Under the pieces are notes generated by a model. That model was not told where the DNA came from and did no database searches. It was given only the letters and a program-made list of their open reading frames with translations. A stretch of DNA of 64,000 bases from Candidatus Dormiibacterota bacterium (lineage in GTDB: Bacteria; Chloroflexota; Dormibacteria; CF-121). The first letter of the stretch is position 1; every line of letters begins with the position of its first letter. The translations under genes were made by a program, and so were the position numbers. Shown piece by piece: positions 11,132-64,000 of this stretch. The stretch is from positions 7,939 through 71,938 of the forward strand of contig DATEHI010000052.1 of the NCBI GenBank assembly GCA_035279665.1, read 5' to 3'.

Positions 11132-11843
11132 CGAGCACGGCTGGATTCTCGCGCACCTCGCTGGGCTTGCCGCTCGCGATCACGCGGCCCCGGTGCAGGA
11201 CCACGACCTCGTGGCACAGGTTCATCACGAAGCTCATGTTGTGCTCGACCAGCAGGAAGGTCACGCCCTGCCCATTCAGCTGCCTGATGTGTTCGGCAAT
11301 CCGCTCGAGCAGCACCGGGTTGACCCCGCCGGCGGGCTCATCGAGCAACACCAGTTCCGGCTGCGCCATCATCACCGCGGCCAGTTCCAGCAGCTTGCGC
11401 TGCCCGTACGACAGCGCACCACCGAGCGTGCCCGCGACTCGACTGATGTCCATGAACTCCAACATCTGCATCGCCCGCGCCTTCTCGTGGCCCCACTGTC
11501 CATGGGAAAGCAGCGCGCGCAACCCCGCACGCCGCACCGGTACCAGCATGTTCTCCAGCGCCGTCAGCCGTGGAAAGATGCGGGCCAGCTGGAAGGTGCG
11601 TCCGATACCCAGCCCGTAGATGCGGTCGGGGCCCAGGCCGGTGATCGACCGCGACTTGAATCGCACGTCGCCGCCGTCTCGCGGCAGGAAGCCGGTCACC
11701 AGGTTGAAAACGGTCGTCTTCCCGGAGCCGTTCGGACCGATCAGCCCGGTGATGCTGCCGGCCGGAACCGAGAGCGAGCACGAGTCGACCGCCACCACAC
11801 CACCGAAGCGCTTGGAGAGGTCCTGGATTTCGAGCAGGCTCAT
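11112..11843 (-). CDS. livG: Branched-chain amino acid ABC transporter ATP-binding protein (LivG type)
   Basis: Walker A GPNGSGKTT and signature LSYGQRK. Start taken at MSLLEIQDL (ATG 11843), which overlaps the livM stop (ATGA). The longer ORF to 11903 is an upstream extension. Confidence 0.9.
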   Translation of the reverse strand: MSLLEIQDLSKRFGGVVAVDSCSLSVPAGSITGLIGPNGSGKTTVFNLVTGFLPRDGGDVRFKSRSITGLGPDRIYGLGIGRTFQLARIFPRLTALENMLVPVRRAGLRALLSHGQWGHEKARAMQMLEFMDISRVAGTLGGALSYGQRKLLELAAVMMAQPELVLLDEPAGGVNPVLLERIAEHIRQLNGQGVTFLLVEHNMSFVMNLCHEVVVLHRGRVIASGKPSEVRENPAVLDAYLGA

Positions 11844-12886
11844 GGTGATGTGGCCCGGTGCTCTGCCGGCGTTGCCACGTCCTGTCGGGCACCGACGCGC
11901 CAACGGTGGAAGAGGTCCGCGAGCGAGGGAACGATCCCCCGGGGGAGGAAGAGGATCACGATCAGAAAGACCGCCGAAAACAGCAACAGGTAGAGCCGGC
12001 TAGCCCCGAAGCGATAGGCAAACTCCAGCTGTGCACGCTCGAGGAGCACCGCCCCGATCACCGGCCCGCTGAGCGTTCCGAGACCACCGAGGAAGGTCAT
12101 CAGCACCATCGAGATGCCGAGCAGCGGATCCACCACGAACTGCGGGTACAGGTAAGTGACGTAATAACCGTAGACGGCGCCGATCATGCCTACCAGCGTC
12201 GCGCTGATGACGAAGGCGGTGAGCTTGAACGCGCGCGTCGGCACGCCCACCGCCAGCGCCTTGTCCTCATCGTCGCGGATCGCGAGCAAGCCGAGCCCGA
12301 ACTTGGAGCGGCGAATCCACCAGGACAAGGCGAGCCCGAGGACCGCCAATGCGAGCATCGCGTAATAGAAGGGGATGTTGAAGAAATCACCCGTCCAGTC
12401 GTGAGGGTAGGGAACGCTCAGGCCGGCGCCACCTCCAGTGAGCTTGACAAGGTTTTCCGCCAGCAACTGCACGATGAACATGAAGGCGATGGTGACGATG
12501 ACAAAGGTCGCGGCCCGGGTGCGCAGCGCGATCCAGCCGATCCCGACCGCGGCCACCGCCGTCAGAAAGCCGGCGACCGGCACCAGCAGGAAGGGCGCGT
12601 AGCCCGGCGTGATGTTGAGGTGGATCAACAGCAGGCCGAACGAATAGGCACCGATCCCGAAGAATGCCGCGTGACCGAGGGAGATGTAACCGGTGTAGCC
12701 GCCCATGACGTTCCAGGCGGTTGCCAGCCCCACGTACATCACCGTGAAGACGGCGATGTTGGTGGTCGCCGGGTCGGGCGCGATCACGGGCAGGAACAGC
12801 GCGAAGGCGGCGAGCACGACCAGGCTGAGCGCCTTGAGTGCGGTCGTTTGACCGCTTCTCAGCCTGAGCGTGGGGATGGCGGTCAT
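11840..12886 (-). CDS. livM: Branched-chain amino acid ABC transporter permease (LivM type)
   Basis: Polytopic membrane protein with LivM-like conserved region (YISLGHAAFFGIGAYS). Confidence 0.9.
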   Translation of the reverse strand: MTAIPTLRLRSGQTTALKALSLVVLAAFALFLPVIAPDPATTNIAVFTVMYVGLATAWNVMGGYTGYISLGHAAFFGIGAYSFGLLLIHLNITPGYAPFLLVPVAGFLTAVAAVGIGWIALRTRAATFVIVTIAFMFIVQLLAENLVKLTGGGAGLSVPYPHDWTGDFFNIPFYYAMLALAVLGLALSWWIRRSKFGLGLLAIRDDEDKALAVGVPTRAFKLTAFVISATLVGMIGAVYGYYVTYLYPQFVVDPLLGISMVLMTFLGGLGTLSGPVIGAVLLERAQLEFAYRFGASRLYLLLFSAVFLIVILFLPRGIVPSLADLFHRWRVGARQDVATPAEHRATSP

Positions 12887-13758
12887 ATTCGATCACGCAC
12901 GCGCACGCCATAGAGGCCCTGCGGTCGCGCGATCAGGACGGCGACCAGAATGACGAAAAACACGAAGTTGGCCCAGACCGGCGAGACCAGGACGGCGGTG
13001 ATGTCTTCGGTGACCAGCATGACCAGCGCGGCGACGACGGCCCCGCGCAGACTTCCCAGGCCACCGAGCACGATGATGGTGAGAAGGCGCGAGATCAGAT
13101 CGTAGTGGCTGCCCGGGTTGAACGCATTGGTGATGCCGAACACCACGCCGCCGGCCGCCGCGGTCGCGACCCCGACGCCGAAGGCGAGCGCGGCGACTCG
13201 GTCGACGTCGATGCCGATCAACTGCGCCGCGGTTCGGTTGAGCATTGTCGCCCGGATAGCTCCGCCGAATGCGGTGCGGTAGAGCATCAAGAACAGCGCC
13301 CCCAGGATCGCGAGGCAAAGCACGAAGCCGAAGACATAGACATAGGTGATGCGGAAACCGAAGATCGGAAAGCTGGCGGTCTCGTACCAGGCCCGCAACT
13401 GGACGTAGTTGGTGCTGAAGAAATAACCGAGGACGCCCTCGACGCCAAGGGCGATCGCGTAGGTCACGAGTACGGACAGCGCTTCGCGGTCCGTCCTGAG
13501 CGGGCGAATGAACGCCAGCTGCAAGACGACGCCCAGCGCGAACATGGCCGGCATGGTGACCACCAGGCTGAGGAACGGGTCGATGTGGAAGGAGCGGAAG
13601 AGCGCGAAGCTGAGGTAGGCGCCGAGCACCACCAGCGCGCCGTGGCCGACGTTGATGATGCGCATCACGCCGAAGATCAAGGTGAGCCCCGAGGCCATGA
13701 GCGCGTAGACCCCGCCCGTCAGGATGCCGAGGGCCGCGGCCTGAAGGACGAGGCTCAT
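12883..13758 (-). CDS. livH: Branched-chain amino acid ABC transporter permease (LivH type)
   Basis: LivH-like N-terminus MSLVLQAAALGILTGGVYALMASGLTLIFGVMRIINVGHG. About 8 TM segments. Confidence 0.9.
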   Translation of the reverse strand: MSLVLQAAALGILTGGVYALMASGLTLIFGVMRIINVGHGALVVLGAYLSFALFRSFHIDPFLSLVVTMPAMFALGVVLQLAFIRPLRTDREALSVLVTYAIALGVEGVLGYFFSTNYVQLRAWYETASFPIFGFRITYVYVFGFVLCLAILGALFLMLYRTAFGGAIRATMLNRTAAQLIGIDVDRVAALAFGVGVATAAAGGVVFGITNAFNPGSHYDLISRLLTIIVLGGLGSLRGAVVAALVMLVTEDITAVLVSPVWANFVFFVILVAVLIARPQGLYGVRVRDRI

Positions 13759-13818
13759 CGCGGAAGCAAGCGAAAGATGAGGGGACGGCGCCTGCTGGTC
13801 ACCGTCCCCTCAGCCTAA

Positions 13819-15045
13819 CTAAGGCCAGTTCGGCTTCGGAAACTCGGGCTTGTTGGAGCCGGCCACGGTCGGGGGATAGACAAAGACTGCCTGGCCGGAT
13901 TGCCATTGTTCGATGTAGACGCCCACGCCACCCTGCGGCTTGCCCGTACTGTCGAAGGACATGGGGCCCTGGATCGTCTGGTAGGTCCCCGAATGCAAGG
14001 CGATGATCAGCTTCGAGTTCTCGATGCTGTTCGCCTTCTTGGCCGCCTGCTCGACCACCTGGCCAACACTGTAGGCCTCGGCGGCGTCGGCGCTGATGCC
14101 GCCAGCCGTACCGCCGTACTTGGCGATGAACTCGCTGACGAACTGGCTGTTGCCATAGGCGGTGGCATCAGACGTCCAGCCGGCCGGCACCATCACACCC
14201 TCGTCCGCCGAACCCACCTTGTCGGAGAAATCCTTGCCCTGGTCCGGGCCGGTGGTTTCGATCAGCGACTTGGGGTTGTAGTGCTGTTGCTGGAAGACCT
14301 TGATGAAGGCGACGGCGTCGGGGATCTGTGTTCCCAGGATCACGACGTCGGCATTCGCATGGATCATCTGCAGGGCGATCGGCGTGAAGTCCGTCGTCTC
14401 CGCTGGATATACCTTGTACCCACCGGACGGTGTGGTGATCCCGCCGGCCTCGAGCAGGGCCTTGGCCTTGTCGACTTGCGGCTGGGTGAAGGGATCATCC
14501 TGCGTCGCGTAGGCGGCGGTCTTCGGGCGCTGGCTGCTGGGGAGTCCGAGCAGCCATTTCGTATAGCTCACGAGGTTGTCTTCGACGGCCGCCGGCTGCA
14601 CGAAGAAAATGGACTTCAGGCCGCGGTTGAAGACGGCCGGACCGCCGCCGGCCGGCTCGGGAAAGGCGTAGCCATAACGGTCAGTGACCGTGGAGGCCGG
14701 GATCGTCAGCAGCGAGCTGAACGGTCCGAAGACCAACGCCACCTTCTCCTGCGTGATCAGGTTTGTATAGTTCGTGACCACCTGCTGCTGGCTGCTGGCG
14801 TCGTCGACGTATTTCATGGTTACCTGGTGCCCGAGCAGTCCGCCCTTCTTGTTGACGTCCTGCATCCACAGGTCATACCCCTGCTCCAGCGCTTTCCCGT
14901 CGGTCGAGAAGTCGCCGCTCAGCGATACGGAGACTCCGATCGTAATCGGCGCCTGGGGTGACGCGGTCGTGCTCGCCGTTGAGCTGCCGCACGCTGATAG
15001 AACCAGGGCGAACCCGGCCACGATCATCGACACGGGCTTACGCAT
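13819..15045 (-). CDS. livJ: ABC transporter substrate-binding lipoprotein, Leu/Ile/Val-binding (type I PBP) family
   Basis: Lipoprotein signal peptide with lipobox LSAC. PBP-I fold motifs (ITIGVSVSLSGDFS, KYVDDASSQQ). First gene of the liv operon. Confidence 0.88.
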   Translation of the reverse strand: MRKPVSMIVAGFALVLSACGSSTASTTASPQAPITIGVSVSLSGDFSTDGKALEQGYDLWMQDVNKKGGLLGHQVTMKYVDDASSQQQVVTNYTNLITQEKVALVFGPFSSLLTIPASTVTDRYGYAFPEPAGGGPAVFNRGLKSIFFVQPAAVEDNLVSYTKWLLGLPSSQRPKTAAYATQDDPFTQPQVDKAKALLEAGGITTPSGGYKVYPAETTDFTPIALQMIHANADVVILGTQIPDAVAFIKVFQQQHYNPKSLIETTGPDQGKDFSDKVGSADEGVMVPAGWTSDATAYGNSQFVSEFIAKYGGTAGGISADAAEAYSVGQVVEQAAKKANSIENSKLIIALHSGTYQTIQGPMSFDSTGKPQGGVGVYIEQWQSGQAVFVYPPTVAGSNKPEFPKPNWP

Positions 15046-36152: not shown

Positions 36153-36258
36153 CGGTTATCAAGAGTGGCGGAGGGACCGGCCCAGAGATGCCTGCCAACC
36201 TACCGGAATACCGGCAAGGTGGAAAGTCCGTCAGACGAGAGTCTGAAAGATGATGCAG
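36153..36258 (+). ncRNA. SAM-I riboswitch (S-box leader) aptamer
   Basis: UUAUCAAGAG-UGGCGGAGGGAC-CGGCCC-AGAGAUGCC-UGCCAACC...GGUGGAAAGUCC...GUCAGACGAGAGUCUGA-AAGAUGA aligns to the S-box consensus nearly position for position (for example B. subtilis yitJ: CUUAUCAAGAGAGGUGGAGGGACUGGCCCGAUGAAACCCGGCAACC...GGUGCCAAUUCC...AAAGAUGAG). Confidence 0.8.
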
Positions 36259-36363: not shown

Positions 36364-37608
36364 GTGAAGCAGTTGCGATGTCGGGAGTGCGGACGATTGC
36401 GGGACTTCGAGCCCGCCTACGTCTGCGAGCACTGTTTCGGACCGCTCGAGGTGGCGTACGACCTCGACGCCGTCAGGGAGCGGGTCAGCCACGACTCGAT
36501 CGCGAAAGGACCGAACACCATCTGGCGCTATCGAGAGCTGTTGCCCGCCCCGGACAGCGAGCCCATCGACCTGGGGACGGGCTTCACGCCGTTGGTGCAC
36601 GCCCCCAACCTCGGGAAGGTCCTGGGCCTCGATCATCTCTACCTGAAGAACGACACGGTGAACCCGACCGGCTCGTTCAAGGATCGCAACGTCGCGGTCG
36701 CCACCAACTTCGCGCTCTCCTACGGCTTCGACACGCTCTCCTGCTCCTCCACCGGTAACCTCGCCGGCTCGGTCGCCGCCTACGCGGCGCGCGCGGGAAT
36801 GCGCGCGCTCGTCTTCATTCCCGCCGATCTGGAGCCGGGCAAAGTCGGCGCGGCGAGCGCCTATGGCGCCACCGTGGTCGAGGTCAACGGCACCTACGAC
36901 GACGTCAACCGGCTGTGCGTCGAGCTCGCCGACCTATACGGCTGGGCGATCGTCAACGTCAACCTCCGGCCGTTCTATTCCGAAGGGAGCAAGACGCTGG
37001 CGTTCGAGGTGGTGGAACAGCTCGGCTGGAGGGCGCCCGATCATATCGTCGTTCCCGTCGCCGCAGGGTCCCTGCTCGCCAAGACCGCCAAGGCGTTCCA
37101 GGAACTCTTCGGCGTCGGCCTCGTCGACCGGGTCTCCACGCGGATCCACGCCGCGCAGGCGGAAGGCTGCGCCCCCGTGAGCACGGCCATCAAGGAAGGC
37201 CGCGACCAGGTCACGCCGGTGCGGCCGAATAGCATCGCGAAGTCACTGGCCATCGGCAACCCCGCCGACGGCCGCTACGCGGCACGGGCGGTGCGCGCCT
37301 CGGGAGGGTGGGGTACCGCCTGCCGCGAGGACGCGGTCCAGAAAGCGATGGCACTGCTGGCCGAGACCGAGGGCGTCCTGAGCGAGCCCGCCGGTGGCGT
37401 CGTGGTCGCCGGGCTCGAGGAACTCATCGGGAGCGGGCGCATCCGGCGGGAGGAAACCGTCGTGATCTGCATCACCGGCAACGGCCTGAAGACGACCGAG
37501 CTCTTCGACGTCCGCGATGGGCTCCGGCTGCACCTGGCGAAGCCCCGCGCGTCAGAGTTCGAGAAGGCGCTGGCTGCTGCGGAAAAAGCCCCAGCCGCGG
37601 TCGCATGA
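36364..37608 (+). CDS. Threonine-synthase-family PLP enzyme with N-terminal Cys4 zinc ribbon (ThrC paralog; MetM-like candidate)
   Basis: CRECGRLRDFEPAYVCEHC zinc ribbon, PLP lysine motif PTGSFKDRN and fold-type II core. GTG start. A second canonical thrC exists at 45670..46710. Confidence 0.85.
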   Translation: MKQLRCRECGRLRDFEPAYVCEHCFGPLEVAYDLDAVRERVSHDSIAKGPNTIWRYRELLPAPDSEPIDLGTGFTPLVHAPNLGKVLGLDHLYLKNDTVNPTGSFKDRNVAVATNFALSYGFDTLSCSSTGNLAGSVAAYAARAGMRALVFIPADLEPGKVGAASAYGATVVEVNGTYDDVNRLCVELADLYGWAIVNVNLRPFYSEGSKTLAFEVVEQLGWRAPDHIVVPVAAGSLLAKTAKAFQELFGVGLVDRVSTRIHAAQAEGCAPVSTAIKEGRDQVTPVRPNSIAKSLAIGNPADGRYAARAVRASGGWGTACREDAVQKAMALLAETEGVLSEPAGGVVVAGLEELIGSGRIRREETVVICITGNGLKTTELFDVRDGLRLHLAKPRASEFEKALAAAEKAPAAVA

Positions 37609-54032: not shown

Positions 54033-56399
54033 TTACTCCGTCTGCAGCACCTCGGTTACCCTCGACCGCGCCGCCCACTGCGCCGGGATGAGCGCCCCGA
54101 GCATGGCGATCGCGAGGCCGGCCGCAGCTAGCGCAACGAGCAAGCCGATGTCGAACACGTTGAAGTACTGGCTCGGAATGCCCGTCCCCGAGGCAATCTG
54201 GCCCATCAGCACCAGGATGTTGCGGTGAAGGATCATGCCGCCCGGGATGCCGATGCCGGCACCAACCACGCCGAGTAGCGCGACCGACGCCAGGACCATC
54301 GCGGTCACCTGGCCTGGCGTCATGCCAATGGCCTTGAGGACCGCAACGTCGCGAGCCTTCTCGCGGGTATTCAGCACAACGGTGTTGAAGACGCCGGCGA
54401 GCGCGATCAGGGTCAGGATCAGCGCCAGCCCCGCCAGCGTGCTGTTGATCAGGATGAATGCGGTATCGACGCCGCCCTGGGCGCGAACGTCAACACCGAG
54501 CTCGGGGCTGGCCGACTGCAGGGTACCTGCGTAAACGTTGGCGTTGGTGCCCGGCCGCAGCTGGATTTCGTACTGCTGTGCCTCAAAATTGCCGGGAAGG
54601 CTCCCCCAATCGGTGCGCAGCAGGATGTTGTCGCCCTGGATGTCGAAGATTTCGCCGACCAGCCTGAGGCTGAGGTCCTGACCATTCAGGCTGGCGGTGA
54701 TCGTATCGCCGAGACGGTGTTGCGTCCTGGTCAGAAACGCTGTCGGTGCCACCGCTTCGCCCGCCGAATTGAACCATCGCCCGCCGATGACCGGATAGCC
54801 GAGCCAGGAGGCATCGCCTCGGTAGGCGGTTAGCGGAACGGGCTCACCGGCGCCTGCCACCGCCACGTCCAGCGTGGTTTCCGAAACGACGTGCGCGGTT
54901 CCGGACTGTGCCCCGATCAGGGCCGTGACCTGCTGGTCGGTTGGCGTGGTGCTTGGGCCTTTGGTACCGGCACCCTGTGGCTGAGCCGTTTCCTTACCGA
55001 CACCCCCAACCTGCCGAAAGACGGTGACCTGCACCTGCTGGTCGCGGCTCAGGCCGGACTTGACATCGGCTAGCGATCGGCTCAATCCGAGGCTGAACGT
55101 GACCGTTGCGACGCCGATCAGGATCGCGGCCGCGGTCATTGCCGACCGGACCGGTCGCGCTAGGGAATCACCACCGCCGAGTGTCAGGGCGCGCGGCAGC
55201 GCGAGCCGCGCCGCGATTCGAGCAAGCCGGAACCCGTGTCCGGCGGACGGCGCGCTGCCGGTGGCGATCGCCGTCGCGGCGGTCATTCGGCCTGCGCCCA
55301 GGGAAGCGAGCACCGTCGTGATGATCACGACCATGAGGATCGCAAGGACTCCGAGGGCATCCGTCACCGGGGCAATCCCGAACGTCTGCGGCAGGTTGAA
55401 CGCGTGTGCCGTGTCCGCCAGGAATGGCTGGCTCAGCACGATGCCGAGCGGCACACCGGCAAGACAGCCGGCGATCGCTGGGATCAGCATCTGGCCGGCC
55501 ACCACCGACATCACCTGCCCCGGGGTGAAGCCGATCGACTTCATGATCCCAATGTCACGCGTGCCCGCGATCACGGCACCGCTGACCAGGGTGGCGATGA
55601 TGAAGACCGATGCCAGCAAGGCGAAGGCGCTGAAGGCAAGCAGGAAGGGGATCATCACGGCCGTCGTGCGGTCAGCATCGAGCTTGGCCGTGAGGTAGCT
55701 GGTGGTATCGATGACGGCGCCCCCGTGGAGTCCGGCACTGATCCTGTTGGCCACGGTGTCGATGTCGTGCTGCGAGCTGGCATTGACCAATCGGTACTCC
55801 ATCAAATCGGTGGTCTGGAGCTTCCCGCTGGTCACCAGCGGCACCGCCGCCGGGACGGTCCAGGCGGCCGGCTGATTGCCGACGCCAACCGCGACACCCA
55901 CGACCGTCAGGGGCGGCAGCAGACTGCCGATGCCCGGCGTCACCGTGTCGCCAAGCTGGATCCCACTCCTGTCCGAAAACTGCTGGGACAGGACCACCTC
56001 GTTGGGCCGCTGCGCCCAGCGACCGGCGATCTGCGTCAGACGGTCGACGGCCCCATCCGGTCCGTCGCGTCCCGCGAGCGGTACGGTAAACGTCTGCCCA
56101 TCGGGTTGCGCAATCGGCCATGGGGTCACGCGCCAGGGGCCGACAAACGCGCTGACCCCCGCCGTCTGCCCGGTCGCGCGAAGTTGTGCCTCGCTGACAG
56201 CAGAGGCGGCGAAGGTCATCGTCAGGTGCGCGCCCCGGGCCTGCTGAAACGCGTGGTCGAACGGTGCGTCCGACTCGACCAGAAGCGTCAACGCGAGCGT
56301 GGCGGAAAGGCTCGAGAGCAGGAGGACGATGGCAATGACCGCGGTCTGCACCTTGCGGCGGCGCAGGTCGGCAAGGCTCTTGCGAAGTACGGCGCTCAT
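54033..56399 (-). CDS. ABC transporter permease with duplicated FtsX-like domains (MacB/YbbP type)
   Basis: 788 aa. Two 4-TM FtsX modules, each preceded by a large extracytoplasmic domain. The stop overlaps the ATPase gene. Confidence 0.85.
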   Translation of the reverse strand: MSAVLRKSLADLRRRKVQTAVIAIVLLLSSLSATLALTLLVESDAPFDHAFQQARGAHLTMTFAASAVSEAQLRATGQTAGVSAFVGPWRVTPWPIAQPDGQTFTVPLAGRDGPDGAVDRLTQIAGRWAQRPNEVVLSQQFSDRSGIQLGDTVTPGIGSLLPPLTVVGVAVGVGNQPAAWTVPAAVPLVTSGKLQTTDLMEYRLVNASSQHDIDTVANRISAGLHGGAVIDTTSYLTAKLDADRTTAVMIPFLLAFSAFALLASVFIIATLVSGAVIAGTRDIGIMKSIGFTPGQVMSVVAGQMLIPAIAGCLAGVPLGIVLSQPFLADTAHAFNLPQTFGIAPVTDALGVLAILMVVIITTVLASLGAGRMTAATAIATGSAPSAGHGFRLARIAARLALPRALTLGGGDSLARPVRSAMTAAAILIGVATVTFSLGLSRSLADVKSGLSRDQQVQVTVFRQVGGVGKETAQPQGAGTKGPSTTPTDQQVTALIGAQSGTAHVVSETTLDVAVAGAGEPVPLTAYRGDASWLGYPVIGGRWFNSAGEAVAPTAFLTRTQHRLGDTITASLNGQDLSLRLVGEIFDIQGDNILLRTDWGSLPGNFEAQQYEIQLRPGTNANVYAGTLQSASPELGVDVRAQGGVDTAFILINSTLAGLALILTLIALAGVFNTVVLNTREKARDVAVLKAIGMTPGQVTAMVLASVALLGVVGAGIGIPGGMILHRNILVLMGQIASGTGIPSQYFNVFDIGLLVALAAAGLAIAMLGALIPAQWAARSRVTEVLQTE

Positions 56400-57112
56400 T
56401 GGAGCTGCACCAGGCTGCGGGACCCATCGCCGCGCTGATCAGCGACAGCGCCGTCGACCAGCCGGACGACGCGCGTGGCGCTCGACCGGGCCAGCCGCTC
56501 GTCGTGGGTCACGAGCACCAGCGTCTGTCCGGTGCGGTTCAGGTCGCCGAGGATGGCCATCACCTGGTCGCCGGAGTGTGAGTCGAGGGCGCCGGTCGGT
56601 TCGTCCGCCAGCAGCAAGACCGGATTGTTGATGAGCGCCCGCGCGATCGCCACACGCTGTCGCTCGCCACCACTCATCCGAGCCGGGTACTGGTCTCGCA
56701 AGGGCGCGATGCCGAGGCGTTCGAGCAGATCCAGCGCCCGCCGGCGCGCCTGGCCAGGTTTCATCCCGGCGAGCTGGGCCGGGATCGTGACATTGTCGAG
56801 TGCCGTCAAATTGTTGAGCAGGTTGAAGAACTGGAAGATGATCCCCACTCGAGCGCGGCGGAAGCGCGCCAGGCCGGCCTCGCTGAGCCGGCCGAGGTCG
56901 ACGCCGTCGACGACGATCGTTCCCTTCGTCGGACGATCCAGGCCGCCGATCACGTTGAGCAGCGTGGACTTTCCGCTTCCAGACGGCCCCATGATGGCGG
57001 TCACCTCGCCGGCGGCGATGCCGATCGAGACGCCATCGAGCGCTGCGTGCGCGCGTTCGCCGTTGTAGACCTTCCTGACCTCGGTCAGCGCGATGAGTTC
57101 GGCCATGACCAC
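56396..57112 (-). CDS. ABC transporter ATP-binding protein (MacB/LolD family)
   Basis: Walker A GPSGSGKST, Q-loop, signature MSGGERQR, Walker B LLLADEPTGALD. Confidence 0.9.
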   Translation of the reverse strand: MVMAELIALTEVRKVYNGERAHAALDGVSIGIAAGEVTAIMGPSGSGKSTLLNVIGGLDRPTKGTIVVDGVDLGRLSEAGLARFRRARVGIIFQFFNLLNNLTALDNVTIPAQLAGMKPGQARRRALDLLERLGIAPLRDQYPARMSGGERQRVAIARALINNPVLLLADEPTGALDSHSGDQVMAILGDLNRTGQTLVLVTHDERLARSSATRVVRLVDGAVADQRGDGSRSLVQLQ

Positions 57113-57302
57113 GCTCCTTTTGGGCTGCGGCCCACGGTTGATGGAGCGCAGCCTATGGTGGATTCAGCGCGCCGGCGTCATCGCCAGAGATGAATTCGGA
57201 TCATTCCTGCGGGCGATGGTTCGCCGGGCTCATCCCGCCGAATGACCCCGGCTCATCCCCCGGGCTGATGCGCCGCGCACGCCGCCCCGCTAGAGTCGTG
57301 GT

Positions 57303-58445
57303 GTGCGGCAGCTCGGCACGCTCGCCCGCCGCCTCGATATCCACTGGACCGATGCTGCGCTCGCGCTGGGCCTGACCGCTTGGACCGTCGTAGAAGGGTC
57401 AGGATCGGATCAGTTGGAAGGCTCCCCCGCCGTTCTCCTCTGCACCCTGCCGTTGCTGGTCCGGCGACGGTGGCCGATTCCCGTGCTCATCCTGGCCGTC
57501 ATCGGCTTCAGCATCGCGCAAAACGCCACGAACCTGGCCGCCCTCATCGGCGGGGTGACCGCCGCGGTCTCGGTCGGCCTTTATACGCGTCAAGAAATAC
57601 TGGCATGGCTGGCCGTGGCAGGCAGTGCGCTCGTCATCGCCCTGGAGTTCGGCCATGGCCCGACGAGCACGCTCCCAATCCCCGGCGCCGCGCTCGCCTT
57701 CATTCTTCTCGGCGCCTCGTTCCTGGCTGGCCGGGAGATCTCAACCCGTCAGCAGCAGCTGAATCAGCAACGCGAGCGCGCCGGCAAGCTGGAGGAGGAA
57801 CACGCTGAGGCGATCAAGGCGGCGGCCGAGGCGGAGAGACGCCACATCGCGCGCGAGCTCCACGACGTCGTGGCTCATACGGTAAGCGTCATGGTCGTTC
57901 AGGCCGGGGCCGCGCGGCAAATCCTCATGGAAAAACCAGAGGCAGCCCGCGAGTCATTGCAAAACGTGGAGAACACGGGCCACGAAGCCATGGCCGAGCT
58001 GCGCCGGCTGCTCGGCGTGCTGGGCGAGAACGGTAGCCAGGCGCCACCGCTGGCTCCGCAGCCCGGGCTCGATGGGCTGGAAGCGCTGGCGGCTCGCGTC
58101 CGAGAGGCCGGGCTTCCGGTCGAGTTGCGCGTCGAGGGTCCACCCCTGCTCTTGCCACCCGGGATGGAGGTCGCAGCCTACCGCATCGTGCAAGAAGCGC
58201 TGACCAACGCCCTCAAATACGCCGGAGGCGCGAAGACCGAGGTCGTCGTCCGCAACACCCCTGATGAGCTGGAGCTCGAAGTCGTGGATGAAGGTCTGAT
58301 AGTCAATCCCTCCGACGGCATCGGGCGCGGACTGGTCGGCATGCAGGAGCGGATCGCACTCTTTGGCGGCACGGTCGAGGCCGGTAAACGGCCAGAGGGC
58401 GGCTACGCGGTGCGGGCCCGATTCCCGCTGAAACAGCCAACGTGA
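57303..58445 (+). CDS. Sensor histidine kinase, NarL/DesK type (HisKA_3 + HATPase) with multi-TM N-terminal sensor
   Basis: RRHIARELHDVVAHTVSVMVVQAGAA H-box, ALTNALKYAG N-box and GIGRGLVGMQERIALFGG. Confidence 0.85.
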   Translation: MRQLGTLARRLDIHWTDAALALGLTAWTVVEGSGSDQLEGSPAVLLCTLPLLVRRRWPIPVLILAVIGFSIAQNATNLAALIGGVTAAVSVGLYTRQEILAWLAVAGSALVIALEFGHGPTSTLPIPGAALAFILLGASFLAGREISTRQQQLNQQRERAGKLEEEHAEAIKAAAEAERRHIARELHDVVAHTVSVMVVQAGAARQILMEKPEAARESLQNVENTGHEAMAELRRLLGVLGENGSQAPPLAPQPGLDGLEALAARVREAGLPVELRVEGPPLLLPPGMEVAAYRIVQEALTNALKYAGGAKTEVVVRNTPDELELEVVDEGLIVNPSDGIGRGLVGMQERIALFGGTVEAGKRPEGGYAVRARFPLKQPT

Positions 58446-59107
58446 GCACGAGCGTCCTGATCGCCGATGACCAGTCGCTGGTTCGCGCCGGCTTCCGCCT
58501 GATCCTCGAGTCGCAACCCGACTTCGAGGTGGTTGGTGAAGCCCATGATGGCGAGCAGGCGGTCGCCCTCGCACGGCGGCACCATCCCAATGTCGTGCTG
58601 ATGGACGTGCGCATGCCACGGCTCGATGGGCTCGAGGCGACCCGCCAAATCCTGAAGGACGGCTTGAGCGGCTGCCGGATCGTGATCCTCACGACCTTCG
58701 ACCTGGATGAGTATGTGTATGCCGCCCTGCGCGCCGGCGCCTGCGGCTTTCTCCTCAAGGACGTGGCGCCGGAGCAGCTGATCGCCGCCGTTCGGCTGGT
58801 GGCCGCCGGCGACGCGCTGCTCGCGCCATCGATCACGCGACGGTTGATCGAACGATACGCGGCGCGCAACGCCCGCAGCGACTCGACCGCGGACTTATCG
58901 TCACTCACCGAACGCGAGGTGGACGTTCTTCGCCTGATGGCCCGCGGACTGGGCAACCAGGATATCGGCGAAAAGCTCTTCGTCAGCGAAGCGACGGTGA
59001 AGACGCATGTCGCTCACATCCTGGACAAGCTCCAGGTAGGGAATCGGGTTCAGGCCGTCGTCGCCGCCTACGAATCGCGCCTGGTAACCCCCGGCGAGCC
59101 TGCCTGA
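58442..59107 (+). CDS. LuxR/NarL-family response regulator
   Basis: Receiver domain VLIADDQSLVRAGF...VLMDVRMPRLDG and LuxR HTH LTEREVDVLRLMARGLGNQDIGEKLFVSEATVKTHV. Confidence 0.9.
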   Translation: MSTSVLIADDQSLVRAGFRLILESQPDFEVVGEAHDGEQAVALARRHHPNVVLMDVRMPRLDGLEATRQILKDGLSGCRIVILTTFDLDEYVYAALRAGACGFLLKDVAPEQLIAAVRLVAAGDALLAPSITRRLIERYAARNARSDSTADLSSLTEREVDVLRLMARGLGNQDIGEKLFVSEATVKTHVAHILDKLQVGNRVQAVVAAYESRLVTPGEPA

Positions 59108-59174
59108 TCACGGCGGAATTCGCACGACTGCCGGGCAGGGTTTTAGAATCTGCCAAGACCGAAGGAGGGAGCAG

Positions 59175-60761
59175 ATGACCGACCGGCGCCGTTGGATCCT
59201 GGTTGCCGCTGTGCTCGGCTCCGGCATCGTGTTCCTCGACTCCACGGTGGTCAACGTTGCCCTCCCCCGAATCGGCCGGGACCTCCCGCGACTCTGGTTC
59301 GGCATCCTCGAGGGCCAGTCCTACGTCTACAATGCCTACCTGCTGACGCTTAGCGCGCTGCTGATCCTGGCTGGCGCGCTCAGCGATTACTACGGCCGCA
59401 AGCGCATGTTCCTCTACGGCCTGGTCGGCTTCGGCCTGACCTCGGTGCTTTGCGGTCTGGCCCCCAACATCGAGTTGCTCGTCCTCTTTCGCGTTCTCCA
59501 GGGTGTGGCGGGGGCCGTCCTGGTCCCTGGATCGCTGGCGCTCCTCACGGCCAACTTCGAGGGGGAGGCCCAGGGCCGGGCCTTCGGCCTCTGGGCCGGC
59601 GCCTCCGGGGCAACCACCATCCTCGGCCCGTTCGTCGGCGGCCTGTTGGTAGACACGATTTCCTGGCGCGCCGCCTTCCTGATCAACGTGCCGCTGATCC
59701 TGGTTGCGCTCTGGGCAACTTACGTTCACGTGCCGGAAAGCCGTGACGAAACCTCAACGGCGCATTTCGATTGGCTGGGGTCCGCGATCGTCGCCCTGGC
59801 GGTCGGAGGGCTCGCCTTCGGGACGATCTACGGCCAGCAACGCGATTGGCAGGATCCGTTGGGCTACCTTGCGCTTGCCGTCGGCGTGCTCTGCACGATC
59901 GCTCTCCCCTTCTACATGGCGCGGGCGCCGCACCCATTGATTCCCCTCTCGCTCTTTCGCTCGCGCAACTTCACGGTGACGAACATCTCGACGCTCGTGA
60001 TCTACGGCGCGCTCTATGTCACCTTCTATTACTTGACGCTCTTCATGCAGGGAACGATCGGCTACACCGCGGCCGCGGCTGGGCTGGCCGGCATTCCGGG
60101 CTCGCTCTTTCTGACCTTTCTCTCGGCTCGCTTCGGCGGCCTCGCCGGCCGGATCGGATCGCGCCTCTTCATGGCCATCGGCCCGGTGATCATGGCCATC
60201 GGCGTCCTGTGGTACGCGCGCATGCCGGCGACGAGCACCCCCTGGCATCTCGAACCGCAGAACCCGGCGACCTGGGTCCCCCCGCTCTCCTACGTCATCG
60301 ATCTCCTTCCGGCCGGGATCATCTTCGGCCTGGGGCTGTCCCTGCTGGTCGCGCCCCTGACGACCGCGTTGATGCGCTCGGTGCCGGCGCACAACGCGGG
60401 CCTCGGGTCTGCGATCAACAATGCCATCTCGCGGGTCGGCCCGCAGCTCGCCGGCGCCTTGATCTTCGTCTTCATCACCGCCAGCTTCTACAGTTACATT
60501 GCCGCGCGGCGGTCCGACATCGATGTCAACGATCCCGCGTTTCGCAAATTGGTGAGCCCGCTGAACCCCGCCGGGATCCCGGTCATGGGCAGCCTCGTGC
60601 GCGACGCCTCGACAGCATCCTTCCACCTGGCGATGATCGTCGGTGCCGCGCTCCTCCTCCTGGGGGCCATCGTGAACGCGGTCGGCATCCAGGACCCGGC
60701 CCGGGCGCCGCAGCGTGAGGCCACCCAGGGCCAGACTCAGCCCGCGAAGGAGAGTCTCTGA
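59175..60761 (+). CDS. MFS transporter, DHA2 (EmrB/QacA, 14-TM) family
   Basis: 14 hydrophobic segments. MFS motif A-like regions GALSDYYGRKRM. Confidence 0.88.
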   Translation: MTDRRRWILVAAVLGSGIVFLDSTVVNVALPRIGRDLPRLWFGILEGQSYVYNAYLLTLSALLILAGALSDYYGRKRMFLYGLVGFGLTSVLCGLAPNIELLVLFRVLQGVAGAVLVPGSLALLTANFEGEAQGRAFGLWAGASGATTILGPFVGGLLVDTISWRAAFLINVPLILVALWATYVHVPESRDETSTAHFDWLGSAIVALAVGGLAFGTIYGQQRDWQDPLGYLALAVGVLCTIALPFYMARAPHPLIPLSLFRSRNFTVTNISTLVIYGALYVTFYYLTLFMQGTIGYTAAAAGLAGIPGSLFLTFLSARFGGLAGRIGSRLFMAIGPVIMAIGVLWYARMPATSTPWHLEPQNPATWVPPLSYVIDLLPAGIIFGLGLSLLVAPLTTALMRSVPAHNAGLGSAINNAISRVGPQLAGALIFVFITASFYSYIAARRSDIDVNDPAFRKLVSPLNPAGIPVMGSLVRDASTASFHLAMIVGAALLLLGAIVNAVGIQDPARAPQREATQGQTQPAKESL

Positions 60762-61183
60762 TGGCCGTCCGCGACGATGTCGTCAATACTATCGCCGCCT
60801 TCTCGCTGTTCGCGGACCTGACAGGCCCTCAACTCGAGGAGGTGGCGCACCTGTTCGACGAGTCCTTCTTCGGGCAGGGCGAGCGAATCCTCCGCCAGGG
60901 CGTCAGTGGATCGGGCTTCTACGTCATCCTCGAGGGGACCGCCGGGATCCGCGTCGACAACGTCGAGCGCAGTACGCTGAAAGCTGGCGATTACTTCGGC
61001 GAAATCTCCTGCTTGCTCGGCGAGGTGCCGGTTGCCGACATCGTGGCGGAAACACCCTTGCGGTGTCTTGTCCTGCCGGCCGCCCAGCTCGAGGGATTTC
61101 TGACGCGGCATCCGCGGATCATGTATCGCCTGCTGCAGGGGGAGGCGCGCAAGCTCAAGAACACAACCAAGTGGCTGAGCTAG
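60761..61183 (+). CDS. Stand-alone cyclic-nucleotide-binding (CAP effector) domain protein, 140 aa
   Basis: cNMP-binding fold motifs (FGQGERILRQGVSGSGFYVILEGTAGI...GDYFGEIS). No DNA-binding domain. TGATG junction with the MFS gene. Confidence 0.8.
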   Translation: MAVRDDVVNTIAAFSLFADLTGPQLEEVAHLFDESFFGQGERILRQGVSGSGFYVILEGTAGIRVDNVERSTLKAGDYFGEISCLLGEVPVADIVAETPLRCLVLPAAQLEGFLTRHPRIMYRLLQGEARKLKNTTKWLS

Positions 61184-62685
61184 CGCAGAAGCCTTTTCCC
61201 CCGGGCCGCTATCGACTGGTCGTGGTGGGCAGCGGGCCCGGTGGCCTGCAGCTCAGCTATTCGTTGAGCCGGCTGGGCATCGACCACGCGGTCATCTCGG
61301 ACGACCCGGCGCCGGGCGGCATGTTCCGGCGCTGGCCGGTGTTCCAGCGGATGCTGAGCTGGACCAAGCCCTTCACCGGCGTCGAGCACACGTCGCGCGC
61401 CTACGAACGCTACGACTGGAACAGCCTGCTGGCCGACGACGAGCGGGATCGTGCGGTGATGCCCGCCCTGATGGACGGGACATCATACTTTCCGTCGCGG
61501 CCAGAGATGCAGAAAGGCCTGGAGGCATTTGCGGAGCGCACCGGTATCCGCGTGCGCCATGGAACGCGCTGGGAATCGACCCGTCAGGACGGTGAGGAGT
61601 TCGTGCTCACCACCTCCGAGGGCGAGTACCGCGCGCCGGTTGTCGTGTTTGCCGTCGGCGTCGCCCAACCCTACAAACCCCCAACCCCCGGTCTGGAGCA
61701 GGTGCCGCACTACGGTGACTTTCGTCCGGTCGAGACGTACAAGGACCGGCGGGTCTTCATCGTGGGAAAGCAGAATTCGGGTTTCGAAATCGCAACCGGG
61801 TTGCTGCCCTGGGCTCGGCAGCTGGTTCTGGCGTCGCCGAGCCCGACCAAGCTCTCCGTCAACACGCACACCCTGGTCGGCGTCCGCGCCCGCTATGTTC
61901 AGCCCTACGAGGACGGGGCGCTGGCGGGCGGGGTCATCGTTCTCGACACGACCATCGAAGAGGTCATGAAGGATGGCGCCGGCTATCGGGTCCGCACTCG
62001 GAATGCAGCCGGGCGCGAGCTCACCATGGCGGCCGACGATGTCATCGCCGCGACCGGCTTCGTCACGCCCCTTCGCGACCTGCCCGCGCTGGGGGTCGCG
62101 ACCTTCGGCCAGAGCCGGCTTCCGGCGCAGACACCCTTCTGGGAAAGCGCCACCAGGCCAGGCATTTTTTTCGCCGGAACGATCACCCAGGGCGCGGGGG
62201 GCCTGAAGAAGCACGGCATCCCGAGCAACTCCGGCGCCGTTCAGGGCTATCGCTACAACGCCCGCGTCCTTGCCCGGCACCTGGCCGAAACGAAGTTCGG
62301 CGTTCCCGCAACGCGGGAGCACCTGGACCCGGCAAGCATCGTCCCCTACCTCCTCGATCAAGTGAGCAACGGCCCCGAGCTCTGGCACCAGCGTGCCTAC
62401 TTGGCCCGCGCGATCAATCTCGATCGCGACGCCGGGATCTTAAACGACGGCATCGTGCCCCTGCAACACTTCCTCGACTCGGGTGGCGTCGACGCCGTCG
62501 CGGTTACGCTCGAATCGAACGGCCAGGGGAATCCGTACCCGGTCGTCTACGTCCGCAAGGCCGATTCCGTTGCGGAGCACGCGTTGGCACCGGACCCACT
62601 GCTCGATTTCACCGGCCGCGACTACCAGGACGAGTTGCGCAACGCGCTCGAGCCGGTGTTGAGCGAAGCGGCGTCGCCCGCATGA
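61171..62685 (+). CDS. FAD/NAD(P)-binding oxidoreductase (flavin-containing monooxygenase / pyridine nucleotide-disulfide oxidoreductase-like)
   Basis: Two Rossmann motifs (VVVGSGPGG; RVFIVGKQNSGFE). The GTG start at 61171 is uncertain. Confidence 0.7.
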   Translation: MAELAQKPFPPGRYRLVVVGSGPGGLQLSYSLSRLGIDHAVISDDPAPGGMFRRWPVFQRMLSWTKPFTGVEHTSRAYERYDWNSLLADDERDRAVMPALMDGTSYFPSRPEMQKGLEAFAERTGIRVRHGTRWESTRQDGEEFVLTTSEGEYRAPVVVFAVGVAQPYKPPTPGLEQVPHYGDFRPVETYKDRRVFIVGKQNSGFEIATGLLPWARQLVLASPSPTKLSVNTHTLVGVRARYVQPYEDGALAGGVIVLDTTIEEVMKDGAGYRVRTRNAAGRELTMAADDVIAATGFVTPLRDLPALGVATFGQSRLPAQTPFWESATRPGIFFAGTITQGAGGLKKHGIPSNSGAVQGYRYNARVLARHLAETKFGVPATREHLDPASIVPYLLDQVSNGPELWHQRAYLARAINLDRDAGILNDGIVPLQHFLDSGGVDAVAVTLESNGQGNPYPVVYVRKADSVAEHALAPDPLLDFTGRDYQDELRNALEPVLSEAASPA

Positions 62686-64000
62686 GCCCACTGCCGACCG
62701 GGACCGTCACCTTCTTCTTCAGCGATATCGAGGGGTCGACGCGGCTGATCCAGCAACTCGGCGACCGCTACCCCGACGTCCTGCTCGCCCATCACACGAT
62801 CCAGCGCGAGGCGCTCGCCGCCAACGGCGGCCACGAGCTTCGCACCGAAGGCGATTCGTTCTTCATCGTTTTCAAGAGCGCACTGGAAGCTTGCGCCGGC
62901 GCCGCCGCCGTCCAGAAGATGCTGGCGCAGCACGCATGGCCGGAGAACGGAGAGATCCGGGTACGGATCGGTCTGCATACCGGCGAAGCCACGCTCGTCG
63001 GCAATGAGTACCTCGGCCTGGACGTCCATCGGGCCGCCCGCGTGGCGAGCGCCGGCCACGGCGGCCAGGTACTTGTTTCCGAGACCACCCGGGCACTGGT
63101 CGATCACATGCTCGCGCCGGGTCTAACGCTGAAGGACCTGGGCATGCATCGCCTCAAAGACCTGGCCCGGCCCGAACGCCTTTTCCAGCTCACGGTCGAG
63201 GGCCTGCCCGCCGACTTTCCACCGCTGAAGACGCTGGAGGCGACCCCGAACAATCTCCCGACCCAGCTGACGAGCTTCATCGGCCGGGACGATCAGGTCC
63301 GCGAAGCCAGGGGGCTGCTGGCCCGATCGCGGCTGCTAACCCTCACCGGGCCGGGCGGCACCGGCAAGACGCGCCTCAGCCTAGAAATCGCAGCGGAGGT
63401 CCTGGACCAGTTCTCCGACGGCGTCTACTTTGTGCCGCTCAGCGCGGTGCATGACCCCGACCTGGTCGCGTCGGCGATCGCACAGGCGCTGGCCATCTCG
63501 ACGACCGGCAGCCGACGGCCGATCGACGCCCTGCTCGACCACCTGCGAGAAAAACAAACACTGCTGGTGCTCGACAATTTCGAACAGCTGCTCAAAGCCG
63601 CGCCGATCGCGACCCAGCTGCTCGAGGGAAGCGCCGGGCTGCGCGTGCTCGTCAGCAGTCGCACGGCGCTGCGCGTTTCGGGTGAGCAGGAATTTCCGGT
63701 TCCTCCCCTTGCGCTACCCGACCTCAAAGCCCTGCCCTCACTAGCCGCCCTCTCGCAGTTCGAGGCGGTGCGGCTCTTTATCGAGCGCGCGGTCGCGGTC
63801 AAGCCCGATTTCGAGGCGACCAATGAGAATGCGCCGGCGATTGCGGGGATCTGCGAGCGCGTCGACGGACTGCCGTTGGCGATCGAACTCGCGGCCGCGC
63901 GCGTCAAGCTCTTTTCGCCGCAGGCACTCTTGAGCCGGCTGGTGAAATCGCTGAGCGCCCTGGGCACTGGGGCACGAGACGCCCCCGCGCGGCAGCAGAC
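62682..64000 (+). CDS. Class III adenylate/guanylate cyclase fused to an AAA/NB-ARC-like NTPase domain (partial; continues past window end)
   Basis: Cyclase domain (VTFFFSDIEGSTRL...ELRTEGDSFFIVF...RIGLHTGEA). Then P-loop LTGPGGTGKTRL and Walker B LLVLDN. ATGA overlap with the upstream gene. No stop within the window. Confidence 0.8.
   Translation, partial: MSPLPTGTVTFFFSDIEGSTRLIQQLGDRYPDVLLAHHTIQREALAANGGHELRTEGDSFFIVFKSALEACAGAAAVQKMLAQHAWPENGEIRVRIGLHTGEATLVGNEYLGLDVHRAARVASAGHGGQVLVSETTRALVDHMLAPGLTLKDLGMHRLKDLARPERLFQLTVEGLPADFPPLKTLEATPNNLPTQLTSFIGRDDQVREARGLLARSRLLTLTGPGGTGKTRLSLEIAAEVLDQFSDGVYFVPLSAVHDPDLVASAIAQALAISTTGSRRPIDALLDHLREKQTLLVLDNFEQLLKAAPIATQLLEGSAGLRVLVSSRTALRVSGEQEFPVPPLALPDLKALPSLAALSQFEAVRLFIERAVAVKPDFEATNENAPAIAGICERVDGLPLAIELAAARVKLFSPQALLSRLVKSLSALGTGARDAPARQQ

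Follow-up and report, generated by a model that had tools for sequence, protein, structure and literature searches.

At the downstream end of a 64,000-nucleotide (nt) stretch of a Candidatus Dormiibacterota contig (DATEHI010000052.1, positions 7,939 to 71,938; hereafter the window) lies a compact cluster of overlapping genes encoding a major facilitator superfamily (MFS) transporter, a small stand-alone protein of the cyclic nucleotide-binding (CNB) fold, a flavoprotein, and a class III nucleotidyl cyclase fused to a STAND NTPase. Features of this cluster are summarized in Table 1. In our reading, it is a variant form of cyclic-nucleotide signalling that has not been characterised before and that appears to be coupled to a flavoenzyme resembling bacillithiol disulfide reductase (Bdr) and ferredoxin-NADP+ reductase (FNR).

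Table 1. Coordinates of the features of the gene cluster within the window.
Feature	Position	Strand	Remarks
Leader 5′ of the MFS gene	59108-59174	+	GGAGG Shine-Dalgarno sequence 6 nt ahead of the ATG
DHA2/EmrB-like MFS transporter gene	59175-60761	+	528 aa; accessory cluster member
Stand-alone cNMP-binding-fold (CNB) gene	60761-61183	+	140 aa; without output domain
Phosphate-binding cassette of the CNB protein	60995-61048	+	residues 79-96, FGEISCLLGEVPVADIVA
CNB/flavoprotein gene overlap	61171-61183	+	13 nt; flavoprotein in the -1 frame
Flavoprotein gene (NAD(P)H/FAD two-dinucleotide-binding-domain)	61171-62685	+	504 aa; GTG start
Class III nucleotidyl cyclase domain	62682-63206	+	residues 1-175 of the 880-aa protein
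Start of the STAND (NB-ARC) NTPase module	63207-64000	+	same protein as the cyclase; cut by the window end

An earlier note on this DNA described four genes coupled by overlapping stop and start codons, and direct reading of the sequence bears out each of the junctions. The TGA stop of the MFS gene and the ATG of the CNB gene share one base (TGATG), the flavoprotein gene starts at an in-frame GTG (61171) that lies before the TAG of the CNB gene and gives the two genes a 13-nt overlap, and the ATG of the cyclase gene (62682) overlaps the flavoprotein TGA (ATGA), with the cyclase gene extending past the end of the window. Since the leader is the only junction without an overlap, it likely marks the operon start; no convincing sigma-70 consensus was found within it in the promoter scan. 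The terminator scan detected no terminator-like site on the + strand within the operon, and the promoter, terminator, repeat and Rfam scans yielded nothing inside it. The 13-nt overlap of the CNB and flavoprotein genes would act as a translational-coupling junction. Programmed frameshifting at this position was considered and rejected, as no slippery heptamer is visible there. A 656-aa open reading frame (ORF) on the + strand (60715-62685), which overlaps the CNB gene, was dismissed as an artefact, the flavoprotein frame being open for 152 codons 5′ of the real GTG.

The sequence past the window end was read from a soil-metagenome contig of the ENA (L001) that encodes the same 140-aa CNB protein and shows 5 differences from the window over 13,240 overlapping bases. 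In this contig the cyclase gene (11922-14564) has 880 codons, and its stop is overlapped by the start of a fifth gene, absent from the earlier description, which is itself followed by a convergent gene. This arrangement indicates an operon of five genes. The fifth protein (460 aa) matches Pyr_redox_2 (E value 9.8e-49) and Pyr_redox_dim (1.1e-24) of Pfam and carries the redox disulfide motif CPYFGC, found as CP[YA][FYW]GC in 17/17 orthologues. It is a class I flavoprotein disulfide reductase, and it scores below every NCBIfam cutoff of the Lpd, MerA, mycothione reductase (Mtr), GR and RclA equivalogs.

Searches of Pfam and NCBIfam upheld all four domain assignments of the earlier note. The transporter matches MFS_1 (1.1e-47) and reaches 226.3 bits against the cutoff of 230.2 for TIGR00711 (DHA2/EmrB). 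The CNB protein contains cNMP_binding (PF00027; E 5.2e-15, 55.6 bits against a gathering threshold of 27.5) as its sole domain, and its best solved relatives are the CNB domains of protein kinase G (PKG) and of the regulatory subunit of protein kinase A (PKA-R), with E values of 4e-25 to 1e-18. The flavoprotein is recognized by Pyr_redox_3 (8.6e-34; 117.6 bits against 30). In the cyclase protein, a Guanylate_cyc domain (PF00211; E 1.2e-14, 54.8 bits against 21.9) is followed by NB-ARC (31 bits against 23.5), AAA_22 and AAA_16, and NCBIfam matches an AfsR-type NB-ARC region. Both the P-loop (GPGGTGKT, 63348-63371) and Walker B (LLVLDNFE) are intact. The full-length 880-aa protein of L001 comprises cyclase, NB-ARC and tetratricopeptide repeat (TPR) parts, the last of these being a C-terminal TPR_12 match (1e-13; 51.7 bits against 30.1). 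Of the TPR/LuxR terminus that had been anticipated, the repeats are therefore present, while no GerE/LuxR domain was matched in this protein at E<=0.01. By its profile match, P-loop, Walker B motif and C-terminal repeats, the protein is a STAND NTPase of the NB-ARC/AfsR/MalT type.

When GTDB genomes, one for each species, were scanned with a flavoprotein alignment, 396 of them proved to contain a relative. The neighbourhoods of the best 80 loci from these 396 genomes, belonging to Dormibacterota, ‘Chloroflexi CF_’ bins and Limnocylindria (60-94% identity), were then compared, with gene presence scored by tblastn of the window proteins. Wherever a locus includes upstream DNA, the CNB gene immediately precedes the flavoprotein gene in the same orientation; of the 62 junctions that could be measured, 60 preserve the 13-nt overlap spacing, a recurrence that places this junction beyond chance. 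Because the overlapping genes are conserved across the family, co-expression of the operon, as proposed in the earlier note, is very likely, presumably from a single transcript. A hidden Markov model of the cyclase domain located a cyclase gene at a distance of 6 kb or less in 73/81 loci, two further loci being cut by contig ends. In most Dormibacterota loci a cyclase-STAND-TPR gene comes immediately after the flavoprotein gene. In a more distant clade the cyclase gene is upstream and divergent, frequently with the arrangement cNMP2-cyclase-MFS, cNMP2 being a second CNB protein. Identity to the window co-varies among the flavoprotein, the CNB protein and the cyclase (Spearman 0.92-0.95), the pattern that joint inheritance of a unit would produce.

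The cyclase partner itself is variable: two gene orders and at least three cyclase architectures could be distinguished. Loci L029 and L031 lack a STAND cyclase and carry, directly upstream, genes for an alpha/beta-hydrolase-cyclase (LipJ-like) and a CNB-fused DASS transporter; in L068 a different class III cyclase is encoded downstream in place of the STAND cyclase; and in L057 a LipJ-like N-terminus is found downstream, the contig ending before any cyclase domain. In L023 a DUF2652 protein takes the place of the cyclase. At >85% coverage, 36 loci have an orthologue of the MFS transporter (60-96% identity), among them L064, L065 and L073 with their rearranged cNMP2-cyclase-MFS arrays, and the fifth gene is confined to the closest ~17 loci. 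With the CNB protein, the flavoprotein and the cyclase constant and the accessory genes variable, the conserved core consists of these three, and their conservation indicates that they are a real functional unit. The MFS transporter is an accessory member, found in about half of the loci. Of the quartet assumed in the earlier note, three genes thus keep company across genomes, and the suggested tie to a redox enzyme holds for the core, whereas the tie to efflux holds for about half of the loci only.

Several loci of the census depart from these arrangements. On the complete Limnocylindria-type chromosome OY970306.1 (L079, 3768-8939), two tandem cyclase-STAND-like genes or fragments are situated upstream of the CNB-flavoprotein pair. 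The cluster of L047 is decaying: its MFS gene is reduced to two short fragments (72-83% identity, 6-7% coverage) upstream of the CNB gene, and its cyclase-STAND gene is shortened to ~20% of its length (features at 9289-9513 and 11527-12045). Loci without the fifth gene have other genes after the cyclase gene: as seen in L041 (14151-14905), these are an overlapped ORF of 109 aa that matches no Pfam family and a gene for a ChrB_C-domain protein (2e-47). In L070 (5414-7394) and L081 (8697-10749), where no cyclase gene is visible, sequence inspection revealed catalase-like and Fur/PerR-like genes on the opposite strand, 1-3 kb downstream of the CNB-flavoprotein pair, which hints at an oxidative-stress connection.

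The active site of the cyclase was analyzed in 48 orthologues of the clade with a co-directional cyclase gene and 10 of the divergent clade, with residue roles assigned after PMC4215837. The closest solved cyclase domain is that of Ma1120 (4wp3; E 7.5e-21). The metal-binding residues D15 and D58 and the catalytic Arg120 are invariant in all 58 orthologues. At the base-specifying sites, the co-directional clade has Arg54 (48/48) and Glu109 (44/48), and these positions are Gly54 and Thr/Asn/Ser109 in the divergent clade. The purine-specifying pair is Lys/Asp in adenylyl cyclases and Glu/Cys-Ser-Gly in guanylyl cyclases (PMC4215837); the Arg54/Glu109 pair matches neither. The canonical transition-state Asn site is occupied by His116, next to the invariant partner Arg120. 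Ma1120 has Ala at the Asn site, yet is an active adenylyl cyclase that loses its activity upon the A164N substitution (PMC4215837), so the missing Asn is no argument against catalysis. The window cyclase is probably catalytically active. Its product cannot be assigned from the Arg/Glu pair.

To eliminate binding of cyclic nucleotides (cNMP) in PKA, Epac, HCN and CAP, one routinely mutates the phosphate-binding arginine of the CNB cassette. In the 140-aa CNB protein this cassette is remodelled. Its consensus over 77 orthologues is G-D-[YF]-F-G-E-[IV]-S-C-L-L-G-E-x-P-x-A-D-[IV]-V-A, with Pro90 (76/77) at the site of the cyclic-phosphate-binding Arg and Asp93 (77/77) at the conserved Ser/Thr site; HMMER alignments put Pro90 on the Arg of PKG (E-P-R-S-A-T) and PKA (T-P-R-A-A-T). 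The ribose 2′-OH contact sites G80 and E81, as well as S83, are invariant (77/77). No other 21-residue segment of the protein is as conserved as residues 76-96 (mean entropy of 0.48 against 1.04 bits overall), which argues for a pocket that is altered yet selected, not decayed. Given the exchange of Arg for Pro90 and of Ser/Thr for Asp93, cAMP or cGMP sensing cannot be read off the sequence, and the contact with any ligand would have to be non-canonical. Canonical cAMP/cGMP binding by this protein is doubtful.

A canonical cassette is retained in two other proteins of these clusters, cNMP2 (P-R-[IVM]-A-[ST]) and the CNB-DASS transporter (R-x-A-[ST]), which points to a distinct role of the Arg-less CNB protein. 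The transporter (L029, 7618-9549; L031, 3659-5557) is a protein of 632-643 aa in which a canonical CNB domain (R-T-A-T) is fused to a DASS/CitMHS-type anion transporter, and its gene sits between that of the LipJ-like hydrolase-cyclase and the Arg-less CNB-flavoprotein pair.

The earlier note saw in this operon a self-contained circuit that generates and senses cAMP or cGMP. Its genetic basis stands, as cyclase and CNB genes are linked in at least 73/81 loci, while the Arg-less cassette makes the sensing of cAMP or cGMP doubtful. A cyclase producing cAMP or cGMP, and a 140-aa protein that holds this nucleotide in the canonical manner even with its altered cassette, would agree with a Pfam match far over threshold, with the invariant ribose contacts, and with the conservative nature of the cyclase changes (Lys to Arg, Asp to Glu); the family-specific invariant Arg101 and Arg123 might also replace the missing Arg. 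Nevertheless, we regard such a circuit as unlikely, in view of the nearly invariant Pro and invariant Asp at the two cassette sites, the known effect of mutating this Arg, and the canonical paralogue kept alongside in some genomes.

The flavoprotein carries an FAD motif (GSGPGG, residues 20-25) and an NAD(P)H-type motif (GKQNSG, residues 199-204), both invariant in 58 sequences, and a C-terminal alpha/beta extension of ~140 aa. The second motif aligns with GGKNS of Bdr (7a76). Its closest solved structures are Bdr/YpdA (7a76; profile E 6e-10, Foldseek E 4.6e-15) and thioredoxin reductase (TrxR)-like FNRs. All NCBIfam equivalogs score far below cutoff, and identification as a Bdr/YpdA bacillithiol disulfide reductase was rejected on the basis of TIGR04018 (47 bits against a cutoff of 339.9) and the absence of the conserved N-terminal Cys. 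As the window protein contains no cysteine at all, and a single position, 132, is Cys in 70/79 orthologues, the flavoprotein is predicted not to be a disulfide reductase acting through thiols of its own.

The flavoprotein family has 5713 matches at E<=1e-10 among 8000 candidates scored, and an exhaustive search with a profile brought up 2441 relatives, of which 370 have E<=1e-30. No informative names occur among these relatives, those from Roseobacter and Actinomycetota being designated merely ‘NAD(P)-binding domain-containing protein’. These distant homologues also lack CNB or cyclase neighbours; they were rejected as guides to function, and the partnership with a CNB protein is thus specific to the Dormibacterota/Limnocylindria subfamily. 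The actinobacterial framing of the earlier note does not apply to the operon, whose lineage is Dormibacterota: the flavoprotein is 100% identical to a protein of a Candidatus Dormibacteraeota metagenome-assembled genome. One distant relative, P0253 (1258 aa), is fused C-terminally to an adenylation and phosphopantetheine-carrier didomain, and some flavoproteins of the wider family may act on carrier-tethered substrates. Apparent CNB-flavoprotein fusions (P0165, P0184 and P0190, with both domains, and P0148, with an N-terminal extension of ~140 aa) proved to be frameshifted assemblies in which genuine segments take turns with Arg-rich out-of-frame stretches.

Tentatively, and with confidence somewhat short of even, we favour the view that the cluster is a vertically inherited signalling-plus-redox operon of Dormibacterota/Limnocylindria, in which the CNB protein links the nucleotide made by the cyclase to the activity of the flavoprotein. 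STAND proteins are activated via a C-terminal repeat sensor (the MalT paradigm), and the active sites of class III cyclases form across a dimer interface. A trigger acting on the TPR sensor would switch NB-ARC from the ADP to the ATP state, and the resulting NB-ARC oligomer would draw the cyclase domains together, so that cyclic nucleotide would be made. The CNB-fold protein, produced stoichiometrically with the flavoprotein by means of the overlap, would be a regulatory subunit that passes the nucleotide signal to the flavoenzyme, and export by the MFS transporter and disulfide reduction would be lineage-specific outputs. Both the CNB-flavoprotein complex and the direction of signal flow are what we infer from gene arrangement and sequence. 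The partner cyclases of several architectures share the cyclase domain, not the TPR, and this favours a pair that reads the cyclase product over one that feeds the TPR sensor.

A number of observations weigh against this proposal. The substitutions at positions 90 and 93 remove what canonical cassettes require, and in kinetoplastid PKA-R the equivalent Arg replacements abolish cAMP binding (PMC10959531). The cassette is constant across clades whose cyclases differ (R54/E109 versus G54/T-N-S109), and the canonical CNB proteins of some clusters (cNMP2 in Limnocylindria; CNB-DASS in L029/L031) could be the actual receptors. No cyclase-domain gene was found in the DNA at hand for L040, L070 and L081, nor in L023 with its DUF2652 protein. 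Genuine CNB-flavoprotein fusions, which would support a physical complex, were absent among the library representatives, and a literature search on CNB-thioredoxin-reductase fusions returned nothing useful. The AlphaFold2 model of the flavoprotein is weak (mean pLDDT 62.8), and its Foldseek matches (TM 0.3-0.46) support assignment to the Bdr/FNR/TrxR superfamily only.

Some of the same observations would suit a signal running the other way, with the flavoprotein and its CNB partner sensing a redox state or small molecule, binding the TPR and turning the STAND cyclase on, and with the nucleotide being read elsewhere by canonical receptors (cNMP2, CNB-transporters or CRP-type proteins). The C-terminal repeat sensor is the route by which STAND proteins are activated, the Arg-less cassette speaks against cNMP binding, canonical CNB proteins occur in the same clusters of some lineages, and in L070 and L081 the pair is found, on sequence inspection, within ~1.5 kb of the catalase-like and Fur/PerR-type-like genes. 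However, the pair also stands beside cyclases without TPR or STAND parts (LipJ-like in L029 and L031 and, by its N-terminus, in L057; another cyclase in L068), so that docking of the pair to a TPR cannot be general, and we consider this reversed flow rather unlikely.

The loss of the cassette Arg has a precedent in kinetoplastid PKA-R, where it is combined with a new acidic residue and switches the pocket from cAMP to nucleoside (PMC10959531). By analogy, the CNB protein could bind a nucleoside, or a substrate or product of the flavoenzyme, and be connected with the cyclase only indirectly, via a shared regulon or pathway. The strong conservation of the altered cassette fits such a ligand, as do the biosynthetic settings of distant flavoprotein homologues (P450, methyltransferase and AMP-binding neighbours in L085; the didomain fusion in P0253). 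On the other hand, the acidic site differs from the kinetoplastid Glu, position 83 (PKA Ala202) is Ser, and the nearly universal adjacency to several cyclase types would go unexplained; we judge this possibility quite improbable. The parallel with kinetoplastid PKA-R is a lead only.

More speculatively, the Arg-less CNB protein might represent a novel type of receptor subunit through which a flavoenzyme responds to a small ligand, either a product other than cAMP or cGMP made by an Arg/Glu/His-type cyclase or a nucleoside-like compound. We hold this to be a minority prospect, well on the unlikely side; if true, it would be the first bacterial module of the cyclic-nucleotide family to have direct allosteric control of an NAD(P)H flavoprotein as its output, with coupled export in addition.

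The remaining genes of the contig encode amino-acid biosynthesis enzymes, ECF sigma factors and two-component systems, and by this content the operon region is core chromosome and no island. Just upstream of the operon (54033-59107) are a divergent FtsX-permease/ABC-ATPase pair (- strand) and a HisKA_3 kinase/LuxR-type response regulator pair (+ strand), which occur together in L002, L003 and L019, and partly in L009 (contig end). They were rejected as operon members, since they adjoin it in only 4-5/80 loci. Elsewhere in the window, a SAM riboswitch (RF00162; 61.8 bits against a gathering threshold of 44.4) was identified at 36153-36256 (+ strand), ~100 nt 5′ of a 414-codon ORF (36364-37608) for which the matching contig has a PALP-family enzyme call.

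Genes for cyclases or STAND sensors combined with CNB-bearing effectors are also a feature of anti-phage defence systems of the Pycsar or Avs type. In a PADLOC search the CNB domain matches PycTIR and TIR effectors at the domain level (E 2.5e-9), and the STAND-TPR architecture is common in Avs-type proteins. However, the cyclase-STAND protein has no match to the PADLOC cyclase or STAND families, giving only weak TPR, mad8 and IetA matches, and the lone weak PycC match (E 3e-4) falls on the CNB protein. No TIR, transmembrane (TM)-pore or nuclease effector is encoded, the neighbours are housekeeping genes, and a flavoprotein relative occurs in 396 species-level genomes, the parts of the cluster diverging together as under vertical descent. 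A role in defence is very unlikely.

Dormibacterota are abundant, uncultured soil bacteria whose signalling is almost without experimental characterisation, and a literature search returned no paper linking them with adenylate cyclases. The cluster offers a defined three-protein module in a widespread family. Switches composed of a cyclase and a STAND module are a common class that is functionally unexplained, and here one of them is given a specific candidate partner downstream. The CNB protein provides a natural bacterial example of a pocket that is remodelled yet strongly conserved, which bears on how ligand specificity changes in the CNB fold. If this protein regulates the flavoenzyme, a direct enzymatic output would join transcription factors, acetyltransferases and channels in bacterial cyclic-nucleotide signalling.

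The individual proteins have counterparts in known systems. Canonical CNB receptors (PKA-R, PKG, CAP, HCN and MlotiK1) share the fold and family of the 140-aa protein, which keeps the FGE motif and the barrel glycines; it differs from them in the replacement of Arg by Pro and of the following Ser/Thr by Asp, and in having no fused output domain. Kinetoplastid PKA-R (6flo, 6hyi), whose chains are among the PDB matches (E ~1e-5), is likewise an Arg-less CNB protein with an acidic residue. Its acidic residue is located elsewhere in the cassette, and it is a eukaryotic protein with tandem domains that regulates a kinase.

The Mycobacterium avium cyclase Ma1120 (4wp3, 4wp9) has in common with the window cyclase the pair of metal-binding Asp residues, the catalytic Arg and the absence of the canonical Asn. 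It uses Lys101/Asp157 for ATP where the window protein has Arg54/Glu109, has Ala164 in place of His116, and lacks a STAND module. Rv0386, Rv1358 and Rv2488c of Mycobacterium tuberculosis also combine an N-terminal class III cyclase, a STAND NTPase and TPRs with non-canonical base-specifying residues; Castro and colleagues are said to have found in 2005 that Rv0386 uses Gln/Asn as its base-specifying pair. In contrast to the Rv0386 type, the protein described here has no C-terminal LuxR/GerE helix-turn-helix and an Arg/Glu pair, and its gene belongs to a conserved operon with those of the CNB protein and the flavoprotein. We know of no such operon described for the mycobacterial Rv0386-type genes.

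With Bdr/YpdA and the TrxR-like FNRs (7a76, 2zbw, 3ab1), the flavoprotein shares two Rossmann-type dinucleotide domains and the GG/GKxNS NAD(P)H motif at ~20% identity; it is set apart by its lack of cysteine, its C-terminal domain of ~140 aa and its CNB-fold partner. At the level of the whole cluster, Pycsar systems (PycC with a CNB-TIR or CNB-TM effector) follow the same logic of a cyclase gene beside a CNB-fold gene, but the operon of the window differs in having a cyclase unlike PycC, no killing effector, and a core-genome context with vertical inheritance.

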